From Callorhinchus milii (lineage: Eukaryota): a DNA stretch of 64,000 nucleotides. Made by a program: the position numbers and the translations under genes. Positions 21,867 to 51,425 of the stretch are shown in pieces. Numbering within the stretch: the stretch's first letter is position 1; the number at the start of each line of letters is the position of its first letter. Under the pieces are notes generated by a model, which saw only the letters and a list, made by a program, of their open reading frames with translations, searched no databases and was not told the DNA's origin. Where the stretch lies: the NCBI RefSeq assembly GCF_018977255.1, contig NW_024704742.1, forward strand, positions 133,054,001 through 133,118,000, given 5' to 3'.

Positions 21867-22591
21867 TAAAACAATGAACTTAAACCTCGACCCCACTGGA
21901 ATTTCTCCGCTGTAGTCAGTATTGTAACATAGTGGGGTTTAGCCAGATGTCTGACAATGCAAATGCCTATCATCGTGCTTGAGAGTATGCAAACCAAACT
22001 GAGAATTCCTCATATGTATTCCGCCTGCACGTGGGAATATTCCTGTATCACACTCCCTGCTGGAGGGACCCACTCTGCTTACTTAATTCCGGAAAGTATT
22101 AAGCACAGGTTGGTAAGAACCAAGACCTGGGGAGCCCAGAGTGTGCATTGGGAGTAACTAACGGAGTCTAACCAGTTAAAATAGTAAAAGATGTCAGGAG
22201 GATGTCTCAAAGTGTTTCGCAGGATATATTGTAAAGTTTAGTGACTGTGTATTTTGTAGGCAAATGCTGCAGCCAATTTGTGCACAACAATGCAATCAGG
22301 TTAATAATAATAATCCTTGCATTTGATATAGCGCTTTTCACGTCGGGAGGACGTCCCAAAGCGCTTCACAGAACACACTGTAAAGTGAATTGACTGTATA
22401 TTTGTGGGCGAACGCGGCAGCCAATTGCGCACAGCAATGTCCCACAAACAGTCGTAGATTGAAAATGACCAATTTAATTATTGTTTTTTTTTTTGGAGGG
22501 ATTAGGTTGTCCGTTTAATGTGTCCTCTGAAGGATGACAACTCCAACAATGAAGCGCACCCCCAGCACTACATTGGAGAGTCAGTCTAGAT

Positions 22592-25996: not shown

Positions 25997-26520
25997 TGCA
26001 AGATGTTTGGGTTTTATAAGCAACCCTCACTGGGTGAAGTAAAGATGCATACAAATCTTGGGCACAAATTGTCGAACTTTATTCATTCAGATTAGTAAGG
26101 TCATATGATTGGTAGTCAAAGAATACAACAGAATAATGTTTACATATCTATCAAATAAATAAATATATCAGTATATTCTGTAAAGCGATTTGAGACGTCT
26201 AGAAGACGTAAAAAGCGCTATATCAAATGCAAGGATTATTATTATATCCCATGTACAGTTGAACAACAATTAAGGTTGGCGAAACCAAAAGTTGTGGAAG
26301 AGATGGAGGAGTAATTGTCTGTTCGATCACCAAAAGGTATCCAGGTACTGCCGTGCTGCTAATAGCTGGTGAGCGTCGATAAAGATGTTGAAAGTTGGCG
26401 AAGTCTTAAATTTCAATCTTCTTTCTTTAGAGCTGGAATTCGGTTTGCGAACACCCAAGTTTCAACTCTCTGTCTCTTCTACTTTCGTTAAGAATTATCC
26501 TTTGTTGAAACACTCCCTCC
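25997..26520 (-). repeat. 3' LTR of the ERV (U3 end apparently deleted, SINE fragment inserted at about 26168-26245)
   Basis: tgcaagatgtttgggttttata matches tgtaagatgtttggttttata at 30818; 26400-26500 aligns with 30859-30953; AATAAA on the - strand at 26078-26083. Right boundary approximate. Confidence 0.8.
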
Positions 26521-26886
26521 TCAGTCACACCTAGTGAGTGTATTATTATTTGATTTATTCGATTGATTTAGTTCCTATGTTTAAGCAAAATGCATATCTC
26601 ATTTTGCTACAACATAGGAACGTACAATGTAAAGGATATATAAAATAAATCGGAGTATTTACAAGTAATATTGGGATTGTCATTATTATAGCATAATAGC
26701 ATATATAGAATATACCTGTTCACCAGGATATAATGTCATACAGCTAAGATTGGAACGTTTTGTTTACACTCTATAGATTCCTAACCCTTCAAATCTTTGC
26801 AATACTACATTTATCTCAAAGCAAATCTGGCACTATGCCCATCTTAATATCACACAACATATTTCAAATCATTTGTGTAACATATG

Positions 26887-27020
26887 CTTAGGAAGGACAA
26901 GTTTGCAGGGCTTTGGTGAGAGAGCGGGGGAGTGGGTTGAATTGGATAGTTCTTTTCAAAGAGCCAGCACAGACACGATGGGCCGAACAGCCTCCTCTGT
27001 GCTGTAGTATAATTCTATGA
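26887..27020 (+). mobile_element. CR1 3' tail inserted in the ERV env
   Basis: CR1 3' UTR ending ttctatga, flanked by atatg on both sides; its removal restores the env frame AYGSY|VTQMI. Confidence 0.8.
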
Positions 27021-27846
27021 TATGATCCATAGGCATTGCACACTATGGATAAAGCAATTTCATCATTTTCTTTAGCATTATTTCCAATAATTTCATTAAT
27101 CTCATTTGGGTTTTGTTTCAAAAATTCTGCAATACCTTTCATATTAAATAGGGTAAATCATCTTTTGCTGGTTCTTTTATTCCTTCTATCGCTGGATTAA
27201 CTGCTTCCCTTTACTGTACATTTTCGAAAGCATGCAAATGTGGCTTAACAGTATCCAAATCTGATCGATTCCAAATTCAAATCCCAGACCCCAAAATTCC
27301 TGTTGCTGTACCTCCTATCCCTATCCATCAGCTAACATTTGTCTCATAGTAAAACTGTGGGTATCTGTAATTTCCTGATTGATTATAGGGTAATCCACTT
27401 TTTGGTGAAATCGAATCATTCTTTCAATCAATGATGCATCATAGAACATATTATAACCTTTATATTTTGGTTGTTCTTTTACTTCCCATTTGGTCAAATT
27501 CAAAACTACTGGACTGCGGATGCAGTGGATATTATTGATCAATGTACCTTCCTCCTCTTGTCCTAGTCAATCCTGAGGCAGGCCCTTTAAACAGAGGAGG
27601 GCATTATTTTGTTCTTTTATTTTCGTTATGTTCCACTGTACATTCTGTGAATTCTTATTTTCTGCAGCAAGGCTGAACATCCATAATCCCAGTTTGAGTG
27701 ATTCCCATCAATTTAAGATTCATTTCTCCATTTTCTTTTCCCACTAATTCTAATTCCAAATCCCATCCAATTTTCCTTGAATCATAGATTCTTTTGCCAT
27801 CTCAATTGAGTATGTCACATTTTGACACCAAAATTTTTGATTAGTT

Positions 27847-28260
27847 CAACAACAACAACTTGCATTTATATAGCGCCCTTCACGCTGGACAGCGTCTCGG
27901 AGCGCTTAACAGTGCGGAGCCCATTGCCGAGCCAGGGGGAGGGGGAATGTGACCATAGGCGCAGTTGAAGAGGAAGGTGTTCAAGCGCAACCTGAAAATG
28001 GGGAGAGAGGGGGCAAGGCAAAGGATTGAGGGAGAGTTTCACAGCTTCGGGGTGCAGTGACTGAAAGCACAGCTGCCAATGATGGGCGGAGGATCCAGAG
28101 GACAAGGAAGAGGTCAGAGCCAGTCGAGCAGAGGCAGCGGGTAGTAGTGTAGGGAGAGAGCAGGTTGGAGGGATGGGGGACGGGGGTCAGGGCATGAAGG
28201 GATGTAAATAGAAGAGTGAGGATCTTGAAATCGATCTGCTCATTGACAGGGAACCAGTGG
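27847..28260 (-). mobile_element. L2 3' fragment inserted in the ERV env
   Basis: L2 ORF2 end and (TTG)n tail on the - strand. Confidence 0.85.
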
Positions 28261-29317
28261 CATTTTCATCACCTAATGGAATGGTTACTTAATTTGTATA
28301 TATTCAAATGAAGTGTTTCATTCCATTCTTGGATCCTATTATATTTTCAATGCATAATTATTTCCCCATTTTATCCAATTCCTTTTATCTGATGTGGCTG
28401 CAGTTTTTGTCTGCTTTCAGATTTGACTGGTTTTGTTAGGAAAGGGTCACTCTCACATTCACTGGATAAGGTCCCGCTTCCTAAGTTTGAGAAGGATCTA
28501 CCCCTGGTTCTTGTATAAGTATGCGATATATTCCTGAATCTACAAGAGTTACATTAGAAATTTGTAGTGTTAATTTATAATAATAATCTTTGCATTTGAT
28601 ATAGTGCTTTTTATGTCTTCTAGACGTCTCAAAACGCTTCACAGAAATAAACTGTAAAGTGAATTGACTGTATATTTGTCCAATACTGTTTACAGTCGGT
28701 CTTTATAATGCACATCAACAAATGTTCTGCACTTTGAAACGCCAAAAATTAAGGGAACATCCAAATCCGCATTACACGCTGCCACGTTGTCGTTCTAAAA
28801 TAATCATCTTGTGTTATTGGTTCCTTGACAACCTCATTCTCTTTTACCAATCTCCCCACCATTTTCTTTGCGGTCTATGGTATTTTATGGGTATTAGCAG
28901 ATCACTTCCCACTTCCACTAGGATTTCAGGTTCCTCCATGATTGTTTTTATGTTTCGCTTTATATATTTTAAATTGCTTCTCCTTGGTCTATCTAATCCA
29001 CTCTGCCCTTCAGCTGTTCTCTGTCCTTCTCTTATTGTATTTCTCACAATAGCTTCCACTTCTCTGCATTCCCGTTAGATGTGTTATGTGCATTTTACCC
29101 TCCTTCATCCAATGTACTAAAATTAGCACCACTAAGAATATCATCTTGTTCTTCATTTTTCTTGTCTCCGACGCTTTGTTTTCTGTAACATAATCAGGAA
29201 AAGTGAAATGACCCTCCCCTTATTCGAGGTGAAGTCAGGAACCTCCTCCAATTTTAGGATACTTATAACAAATGTGTATGTCGTTGTCCCTTTTTCTTTC
29301 TCAATCTGGGTTGTTGA

Positions 29318-29580
29318 TAATAATATATATTGCATTTGATATAAAGCCTTATCACGTCTTTGAGATGTCGCAAAGCGCTTTATAGAATATACCGTAAAGT
29401 GAATTGACTGTATATTTTGTGGGCGAAACGCGGCAGCCAACAACTGGGTTCCTATTTACTGCTTGGTAATCAAAGGTGTGTGGAGTAAGGAAACTTGTCC
29501 AATGTATCGCCCTGCCTAGGAATCGTACCCAGGTCCTCTCGCTTGCGAGGCGAGTGCTCTAACTAAGCTACCAGACTCCA
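29318..29580 (-). mobile_element. tRNA-Ala SINE located at the large pol deletion of the ERV
   Basis: Head and tail present, middle deleted; flanked by the RT start on one side and the env-proximal region on the other. Confidence 0.85.
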
Positions 29581-29581
29581 T

Positions 29582-29830
29582 TTCTATGGTCAAATGCCAT
29601 GATCCATCTGTTTTTCTAAACAGCCAAACGGAGGAGTTGTTATAGAGGTTGCAACTGTTCTTAAAACGCCCTGTTGTAGTAACAAATCACTTAGTGTCCT
29701 GCACACATGAATCAGCTTCCCAAGGAAAGTAATATTGTTTTTGAGAGTGTGGGGGATCATCACTGGTAATCTTAACTTGCCCTTCTAATTTACCACAGCC
29801 GTGTTTGTGATTTGCAAAAGCAACACTTTG
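29582..29830 (-). pseudogene. Retroviral reverse transcriptase N-terminal remnant
   Basis: FANHKHGCGKL..VKITSDDPPHSQKQYYFPWEA..VQDT / DLLLQQGVLRTVATS / NNSSVWLFRKTDGSWHLTIE with two frameshifts matches the retroviral RT QxQY...LLxQGV...NSPVWPVxKxDGSWRLTID pattern. Confidence 0.88.
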
Positions 29831-29929
29831 AGTGGTCAGTACATTAGCAATGTTAGCATTGTCATGCGTTGACAATTTCTTTAAGTTGTTTCTTTTATTA
29901 CGTAAAGGGCTCCATGATCTGTTATTGTA

Positions 29930-30242
29930 TTCCAAAAATGTGTAACGGGTTTGACACTTTTAACTTGCCATAATAATAATTTATTTGTAAATGTCTTATC
30001 TGAAGTGGAATTGGAAGTGATTCCACCCCATATTGAGAATTGTCTGTAAACCCACCTAATGGCATAACTATCTGAGATGTAAACTACGAGGTTTGTAGCT
30101 CTTTTTCACATACAACAGCTCGAGAGGCACCAGTATCCAGTAAAAATAATTTGTAATGATCTCCTATCGCAACAAATATACATGGTCTCCCGTGACTATC
30201 GATTTCTACAAGGCACATTATTTCTGTGGAGGCCTCTGATTG
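29930..30242 (-). pseudogene. Retroviral aspartic protease remnant
   Basis: Manual translation: EIDSHGRPCIFVAIGDHYKLFLLDTGASRAVV...*FTSQIVMPLGGFTDNSQ...; DTGA codons at 30126-30137; one internal stop. Confidence 0.9.
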
Positions 30243-30245
30243 TCA

Positions 30246-30540
30246 ATCAGAGATATTAGGAACTCCATTAACCTTGCCTCCCCCTTAAATGAGACATATC
30301 GAAGAGGCACTAGGACTCCTCCCTGCCTGACCTTGTATAGCTTTCAGTTCCTCTTGCAGCTTTCCAACTCGAATGAATTTGTCCTATTACGTCTTTTATT
30401 CCCAGACTGGCACTTTTCTCTTTAATTCCATGTTTTTCGAGCTCAGTAAATCTGCTTAAGGTATTCAATCCATGCAGCTTTAGTTTGGTTAGCTTTCACC
30501 ACCTTTTTCTATCTTAATTCTGCAAAAAGCCATCCACACA
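30246..30540 (-). pseudogene. Probable gag remnant, heavily deleted
   Basis: Lies between PBS and protease; fragments CGWLFAELR and ELEKHGIKEK only loosely resemble class III gag motifs. Confidence 0.4.
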
Positions 30541-30797
30541 ACAACAGCAACTTGCATTTATATAGTGCCCTTCACGCGAGTCAGTGTCCCAGAGCACGTC
30601 TCAATCAGAGTGTCACTTTGTTAGTGCCTCCTTAAGAGGAGGGTAACTTTTCCTCCACATTTTCATTGAATTTCATAGACTTTCACGTTTTTAGAATACT
30701 TCTTCTAATCCTGCAACTTGGTCGTTTCAGTTCAGTTGACTACCCCTTTTTTTAATATAGCCAAAGATTTGTACTCATCAAACTTCAACACAATACG

Positions 30798-30815
30798 GTA
30801 CCTGTTTGGATACCA
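30798..30815 (-). promoter_or_regulatory. Degenerate primer-binding site, tRNA-Lys3(UUU)-like
   Basis: TGGTATCCAAACAGGTAC versus the canonical Lys3 PBS TGGCGCCCGAACAGGGAC: 13/18 matches, 4 of the 5 differences are transitions; 2 nt downstream of the LTR end. Confidence 0.6.
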
Positions 30816-30817
30816 AT

Positions 30818-31337
30818 TGTAAGATGTTTGGTTTTATAGACAGTGTTGACAGTCGTCTAAGTCTCAATTCGATCTTCCTTCTTCAGAAGCTGAAATATGG
30901 TTCGTGACTCCAAGGTCCAACTTGCTGTCTCTTCTTTTGTTGAGAATTATCCTTACATTTATATCTTTATATCTTTATATCAATGATACACATTGACTTT
31001 GTAAAGACATCTGGCATTCAAGCTCCACAAAAACATATTTTTAGTCAGATGGTCTCCTCCTGTCCCCAATATCCATAGTTGACAACACTCCCTCACTTTT
31101 ATCAAATCTCTAGCAGTTTGTTTTACACAAGTCTGAGTACCACCGATTTAACGTCCATTGTGTAGTTAACAACAATGTCTTATTAATGATGATGCTGAAA
31201 CTTTGTGTTCGGTAAACATGCTTCCACTGTCCTTGGTCTTCATACACCTCCAGCTTTTCTGAAGCAAACCAATCCATAAGTCTCTACGATTTTCCTTTGG
31301 TCAACTCAAGCAACCCAGAGTTCTGGGATTGCTTACA
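30818..31337 (-). repeat. 5' LTR of the ERV
   Basis: Termini TGTAAG...CTTACA, followed after 2 nt by the PBS; triple TATAAA-like repeat at about 30958-30980 (- strand); shares blocks with 25997-26520. Confidence 0.85.
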
Positions 31338-51112: not shown

Positions 51113-51425
51113 TATTAATCCTTGCATTTGATATAGCGCTTTTCACGTCGGGAGGACGTCCCAAAGCGCTTCACAGAACACACTGTAAAGTGAATTGACT
51201 GTATATTTGTGGGCGAACGCGGCAGCCAATTGCGCACAGCAATGTCCCATAAACAGTTGTAGATTGAAAATGACCAATTTATTATCGTTTTTGGGGGTTT
51301 TTGGAGGGATTATTATTAGGTGTGTGGAGTAAGGATACTTGCCCAAGGTTTTGCACTGTCTGGAATTGAACTCAGGTCTCTCACTTGCAAAGCGAGTGCT
51401 CTAACTACTGAGCTACAGGACTCCA
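51113..51425 (-). mobile_element. tRNA-Ala SINE (TGC) with an L2-like GACGTCCTCCCGACGTG tail
   Basis: Complete head and tail; inserted into a Deu SINE. Confidence 0.9.

Follow-up and report, generated by a model that had tools for sequence, protein, structure and literature searches.

The window analysed here, a stretch of 64,000 nucleotides on contig C1 of the Callorhinchus milii genome (992 Mb, with abundant SINE, L2 and CR1 repeats), carries a broken retroviral envelope gene into which the first-pass annotation had read one or possibly two immunoglobulin (Ig) V-set-like domains, taken to be captured host adhesion domains. The locus raises the question of whether such a domain is real, whether it belonged to the virus or was inserted later, and what it might have done at the head of a viral fusogen.

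The provirus and its fusogen

A decayed provirus with the order LTR-gag-stop-pro-pol-env-LTR spans about 30950 to 26030 of the window on the - strand, on which all features given below lie unless stated. Its 5' LTR remnant (30817..30954) is 75% identical over 118 nt to positions 26386-26502 of the 3' LTR remnant (26030..26502), which has a SINE tail inside it. The gag remnant (30280..30810), matched at the DNA level by copies on contigs C12, C19, C3 and C4, runs to an in-frame stop and is followed by a protease remnant (29900..30220; LLDTGAS at 30123-30143, Pfam RVP E 0.043) and the start of the reverse transcriptase (RT; 29585..29890), which aligns with residues 141-241 of the Pol of snakehead retrovirus (SnRV) at 33% identity over 102 aa (E 1.9e-11). 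The remainder of pol is absent from this copy, and a SINE (29313..29583) of a window repeat family with up to 31 self-matches lies at the deletion junction. The env gene opens with a start and signal-peptide-like stretch (29109..29156; 91% DNA match in the C24 copy); its core (26484..27603), beginning with CP..GP.SG and comprising a fusion-peptide-like stretch (27256-27327) and a heptad region, is matched by tblastn to residues 163-491 of the frog protein P0008 (best E 1.3e-8). Stops, frameshifts, a SINE tail and an L2 LINE piece damage this env, which is also without its C-terminal third including the TM helix: the window copy is dead and contributes fossil evidence only. Elsewhere in the genome, the C19 copy shows identical LTR sequence at both ends, one adjoining gag, and zinc knuckles and the gag stop are present in the C2 and C4 paralogs; the stop between gag and pro-pol is common to the window, two paralogs and SnRV.

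Three minor observations concern the surroundings. An imperfect inverted repeat of ~100 nt, 75% self-complementary, lies near the env end (26546-26648). The SINE copies at 22302-22476 and 51113-51281 are 98% identical, a young subfamily amid older ones. On C1, a pol-bearing region occurs as two near-identical inverted copies 28 kb apart (13.29 Mb and 13.32 Mb; L044-L047), which may be a segmental duplication or an assembly artefact.

Judged from its sequence, the element is a broken SnRV-like ERV, a group that forms lineage I in the accessible part of PMC4422223. For the comparison we used a 10,688-nt viral record, found by RT motif scan, with an RT identical to that of the SnRV row in the PMC7947760 supplement; the same length is given for SnRV in the available text of PMC12193657. 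The likeness extends over the RT motifs, the gag stop before pol, the env core start and the cleavage/fusion-peptide region. Compared by eye, the RT motifs of the C2 paralog match the SnRV row and differ from the two Lokiretrovirus rows shown, and Lokiretrovirus was rejected on this by-eye comparison with its consensus rows; the accessible material of PMC7947760 reports 0 of 3 chondrichthyan genomes as positive for it in one supplement row, and describes a Lokiretrovirus Env similar in its signal peptide, furin site, fusion peptide, long ectodomain and F-like layout. The annotation had suggested that SnRV env may also start with an Ig-like segment. The core homology behind that link holds, if weakly (env family against SnRV Env core, hhalign E 2.6e-4, probability 43%, 205 columns; no direct tblastn match between SnRV Env and the window), and the Ig-like start is itself weak: the SnRV Env N-terminus (L113:6191-6460) shows Ig-like motifs and then a furin site, with a V-set match at E 0.07 and contactin/perlecan Ig matches at E 0.035-0.04. 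SnRV Env differs in having ~430 extra residues and several furin sites between the Ig-like segment and the core, and its Ig-like segment, unlike the window domain, retains two Cys. The available parts of PMC4422223 and PMC12193657 make no mention of an Ig domain in SnRV.

The layout, together with a low-confidence fold search, points to the Env core being an F-like class I fusogen. The core model (pLDDT 39) gave 12 matches at E<=0.001, with TM-scores of 0.15 or less: 4 F/fusion proteins, 6 other glycoproteins and 2 unnamed. PF00523 had no match in the scans of the window or the relative proteins, nor anywhere in a genome search in which the controls were equally silent. A gamma-type Env is ruled out by the intact relatives, all four of which have 400-450 residues between fusion peptide and TM and no CX6CC (0/4); a CXXC is found in one of the four, downstream of the fusion peptide. 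According to the accessible text of PMC11468914, foamy Env has been shown to be an F-like class I fusogen, and it and the paramyxo/pneumovirus F proteins resemble the present Env in being class I with a long post-cleavage ectodomain, the RBD of foamy Env being built in. That RBD is however inserted inside the surface subunit, and the Ig-fold domain II of F belongs to the core and is no N-terminal add-on (PMC11468914).

An Ig-like domain ahead of the core

All nine sequence motifs named by the annotation were found on the - strand at the coordinates it gave, spread over three frames with stops. A furin-type RPRR (28979..28990) lies ahead of the first domain (28448..28939), a V-type domain with a long C-C'' region and no B-F disulfide, to which EILVEV.. 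(28880-28927), WWGDW (28847-28861), FVDVHYKDRL (28693-28722), LTLQISN.. (28514-28573) and PVNVRV (28448-28465) belong. A SINE tail (about 28575-28690, listed as 28575..28690) interrupts it between the D and E strands; pairwise alignments show it to be missing from the C3 and C12 copies, and it was inserted after integration. The V-set marks present comprise the C-strand Trp, a basic residue before D, the L-x-I of the E strand, D-x-G-x-Y before F and the G strand, and these motifs are retained in the C3 and C12 copies. At both canonical Cys positions the sequence has Ile, as the annotation had noted, and the domain agrees with the CD2/SLAM/CEACAM type in being V-type with the B-F disulfide absent. 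Some known V-set subfamilies are likewise without this disulfide.

Profile comparisons speak for the same fold. Against an HMM built from 30 V exons of the same genome, domain 1 (segments chosen by eye) scored 10.0 bits, a value equalled by 0 of 500 shuffles, and when 3,030 unjoined six-frame tiles of the window were scored, the top 3 fell in domain 1 (12.5, 12.3 and 9.2 bits; next 8.2). The annotation's appeal to Pfam Ig models was borne out as to matches and not as to thresholds: V-set was hit by the E-G piece of the window (E 0.057, 14.1 bits) and by the C12 copy (E 3.6e-4, 21.1 bits), both partial owing to frameshifts, yet these scores and that of the intact relative P0002 (14.4 bits) stay below the PF07686 gathering score of 26, and no Cys-less member of the lineage attains a Pfam cut-off. 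A 47-residue in-frame piece of the C12 copy gave 61 PDB matches at E<=10, and the 60 listed are all Ig-domain proteins by name, led by contactin-1 (E 0.0091) and CD48 (E 0.0093), the latter being the best single-domain chain.

An alternative is that a viral domain rich in beta strands shares no more than a few motifs with Ig. The consistent failure of this lineage to pass a Pfam cut-off and the mostly chance-level pairwise likeness among lineages would agree with such a view, which we nevertheless regard as quite unlikely in the face of the top 3 of 3,030 tiles, the uniformly Ig-domain names of the 60 listed PDB matches, the preference for Ig families in a feature search with P0008 (see below) and a sister lineage that exceeds a Pfam Ig cut-off. 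Domain 1 is very probably real, and its assignment to the Ig fold is, in our judgment, highly likely.

The same cannot be said of the second domain that had been proposed. Its candidate region consists of a first part (28262..28440, with GEIIMH at 28350-28367) and a second part with linker (27604..27844, with ENGEM.. at 27697-27735 and DYGCSA at 27671-27688), interrupted by an L2 LINE fragment (27845..28260; no strand assigned). It scored -0.4 bits on the host V profile, with 140 of 500 shuffles as high, and none of the 6 frames scanned contained an Ig family, so that the first part is unsupported as Ig and the score of the second is not significant. The search for copies found no further copy of the first part, and of the whole candidate only the last 85 nt were recovered elsewhere (C6 copy, 74%). 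What stands between domain 1 and the env core is ~140 codons of non-repeat sequence.

A separate lead, at a place other than that of the proposed second domain, comes from the C3 and C12 copies, which have in common ~150 nt upstream of the RPRR equivalent (G000:C12:10279690-10279830, L009/L008; L006:8430-8640 on C3) that are absent in the window. This stretch encodes a second GPFPV..R motif resembling the G strand of domain 1 (z 4.0-4.6, 2-5 of 1000 shuffles, best of 3 frames), and is possibly the remnant of an additional tandem Ig ahead of domain 1.

The annotation had itself named a later processed-pseudogene insertion as the outcome that would undo its reading. A DNA search of the genome recovered the segment at three other places, on C3 (79%), C12 (77%) and C24 (two short pieces). 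The C3 and C12 copies cross the D-E junction uninterrupted by SINE; on C3, domain 1 adjoins the Cys-rich C-terminal half of env (E 2.6e-20), and on C12 an LTR and a gag piece lie upstream of the domain in the same orientation. Since these paralogs keep the segment in proviral context and intact frog relatives have the Ig domain and the fusion core in one ORF, the segment is part of env and no later insertion. A host processed pseudogene or exon arriving after integration, for which the only argument is that this element took up many later insertions, is refuted by the paralogs (three other loci, 77-91% identity) and the single-ORF relatives, and we accord it almost no probability; the segment almost certainly belongs to the viral Env, and the virus already had the Ig domain when the SINE and the L2 were inserted. 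The furin-type site is variable: the C12 copy has RPRG in its place, the C3 copy has not retained it, the protein P0005 has REKR at the corresponding place, and P0008 and P0002 lack it.

Intact relatives and the history of the module

Searching a better-kept env core on C1 against 1.84 billion representatives matched 4 proteins. The best, P0002 (749 aa), is intact and has a V-set match at its N-terminus (E 0.045). P0008, a Lithobates pipiens protein of 757 aa from a cluster of 14 members (6 of them named L. pipiens models), shares with P0002 the layout of signal peptide, Cys-less Ig-like domain, core and TM. In P0005 (Pelodytes) there is a furin site, and motifs mark an Ig-like stretch that contains Cys, whose score on the host profile was equalled by 0 of 500 shuffles. 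In P0003 the signal peptide runs straight into the core, with no N-terminal domain. P0003 is also without a basic cleavage site ahead of the fusion-peptide-like stretch and may represent an env that was co-opted or can no longer fuse.

The frog Cys-less domain is less readily recognised. A Pfam scan found no Ig family in P0008, P0015, P0016 or P0005; a feature search with residues 22-138 of P0008 (best 0.92) had Ig families in 9 of the 10 clusters listed, and the nearest PDB chains were CEACAM1 (E 0.056) and CD84 (E 0.073). On the host V profile the domain reached 1.0-3.2 bits (9 and 4 of 500 shuffles as high), and hhalign gave E 0.025 at a probability of 2%. Structure prediction, which had been proposed as a check on the fold, was uninformative here: the AlphaFold model is all-beta, of low confidence (pLDDT 53), and matched no Ig fold. 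Since pairwise alignment of the window and frog Ig domains is at chance (no significant likeness, z about 1), their homology rests on position and motifs.

Further env sequences in the genome (33 matches with the P0008 query, 50 with P0005) widen the picture. On the 5' side of 12 env loci we found five near-whole Cys-containing Ig domains, two half domains, one Cys-less candidate (L056) and four without any, these four appearing deleted or interrupted. A second env lineage, with a Cys-containing Ig after the signal peptide, is represented by L150/L083 (C23), L152/L103 (C2), L159, L165, L167, L087 and L162. Its Ig has Pfam support at three loci; the C21 copy passes the PF00047 cut-off (23.3 against 21.8 bits), and its Cys-type domain matches contactin-2 (E 0.006).

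In a tree of the env core (18 rows, midpoint root, SnRV on a long branch; the window row fills 38% of columns, partly off-frame), a 9-row clade (99/100) unites the window, all four rows with Cys-less Ig and the Ig-less P0003, and the six Cys-Ig rows and SnRV fall outside it. The Ig module occurs in several Env lineages, and at least one is without it. From the Cys-less clade, the Cys-Ig rows outside it, the one Ig-less relative and the intact relatives it follows that the Ig is an old, modular lineage trait, as the annotation had suspected, with paralogs and frog relatives supporting this and SnRV doing so weakly.

The tree fits either loss of the disulfide in one clade or a second capture. 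The chances are about even that a single ancestral Ig has come down with the core since before the viruses of cartilaginous fish parted from those of frogs, and that one clade lost the disulfide; on this view the likeness to CD2/CEACAM is convergent and no second capture took place. Such an origin is compatible with a role in attachment. The gathering of all four Cys-less-Ig rows in the 9-row clade with six Cys-Ig rows and SnRV outside, a weak likeness between the frog Cys-less and the Pelodytes Cys domain (z 3.7-4.9) and the MLV-type RBD-C, likewise without a B-F disulfide in the accessible text of bioRxiv 2024.03.17.585361, agree with it. However, replacement by a second capture gives the same tree, the Cys-type domains match I-set proteins (e.g. 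contactin-2) whereas the Cys-less ones match V-type, and the root is midpoint only with SnRV on a long branch. More tentatively, and in our estimate rather less probably, the N-terminal slot was filled at least twice from the host IgSF, with an I-set/contactin-like and a CD2/SLAM/CEACAM-like domain, was expanded in tandem in the present cartilaginous-fish lineage and sets receptor use. In this proposal SnRV-like retroviruses, among them the living fish virus and the intact frog ERVs, bear an F-like fusogen with a swappable slot; if true, it would give the IgV-like RBD of MLV-type Env an independent and far older counterpart.

The ultimate source would be a host IgSF gene, captured too long ago for the donor to be named. 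When the C12 piece was searched against the genome, the 4 candidates yielded just three places, all viral, and no host donor, so that the donor expected by the annotation was not found. Its comparison with CD2 and CEACAM fared better in that CD48, CEACAM1 and CD84 are among the nearest chains, but the matches are weak and contactin-1 is tied with CD48; the likeness may reflect merely the missing Cys.

Attachment as a possible role, and its alternatives

Taken together, we consider it somewhat probable that the segment is best explained as the N-terminal Ig module of an old, dead SnRV-like ERV Env. This Env consists of a signal peptide, the N-terminal Ig module, the core and its fusion peptide. 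The core would act as an F/foamy-type class I fusogen that has no attachment protein beside it. Lying upstream of the core cleavage site, the Ig would remain part of the surface subunit, at the spike's tip, and would serve there as an added domain for attachment or receptor binding. Attachment, for which the N-terminal IgV RBDs offer the analogy, is by a slight balance of probability its main role.

The annotation also allowed for an immune decoy. On such a reading a captured CD2/SLAM/CEACAM N-domain would act on the virion or after release at a furin site, in the manner of A43, the cytomegalovirus CD48 homologue described in the accessible text of PMC6448830. The domain does lack the B-F disulfide, CD48 is the best single-domain PDB match of the C12 piece, 9-10 of 14 frog-profile matches are of CD2/CEACAM type (8 CEACAM/biliary glycoprotein rows, 1 SLAM), and furin-like sites lie close to the domain in several members, in SnRV after it. 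However, the furin-type site of the window precedes the domain, so that cleavage there would not free it and would leave it tied to the core; the E-values are weak and by construction favour Cys-less targets; and sister lineages bear a Cys-containing, contactin-like domain at the same position. A43 resembles the present case in being a viral CD2-family Ig domain, but it belongs to a DNA virus, is shed as a protein of its own and has a clear host identity (PMC6448830). We regard the decoy as improbable and retain attachment as the favoured role.

The nearest precedent is found in the available part of bioRxiv 2024.03.17.585361, which describes N-terminal IgV RBDs in gamma-type and alpha-like Env, the MLV-type RBDs being IgV-like without a B-F disulfide and an alpha-like mammalian Env having captured a SIRP-like IgV domain. 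The likeness to RBD-C lies in an N-terminal Env module of IgV fold, a proposed host capture and modular gain and loss. The precedent concerns mammalian gamma/alpha-type Env with a nameable donor, whereas the present Env has a core that is not gamma-type, cartilaginous-fish and frog hosts and no recognisable donor; that portion never uses the words 'fish', 'shark' or 'frog'. The word 'immunoglobulin' is absent from the main text, as far as accessible, of PMC7947760, PMC13524379, PMC12440569, PMC12193657 and bioRxiv 2021.11.23.469661; related literature, likewise available in part, includes PMC9967133 and bioRxiv 2023.10.07.561363. The searchable literature, a scope that leaves aside subscription journals and preprint supplements, held no report of the Ig layout in SnRV-type Env, and in its accessible portions the receptor-binding part of these Envs is undescribed.

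The N-terminal Ig module is accordingly offered as a receptor-binding candidate for SnRV-type Env, testable on the intact frog proteins and SnRV. It would add a second Env class, the F-like Env of fish and amphibians, to the one mammalian alpha-like case of host-IgSF capture, and is relevant to how class I fusogens acquire attachment domains. As to the frog material, the P0008 cluster comprises intact multi-copy L. pipiens env genes annotated as uncharacterized, which are present in Logan contigs too and have no evident canonical furin site; one of its models, P0011, is fused to unrelated retroelement sequence.
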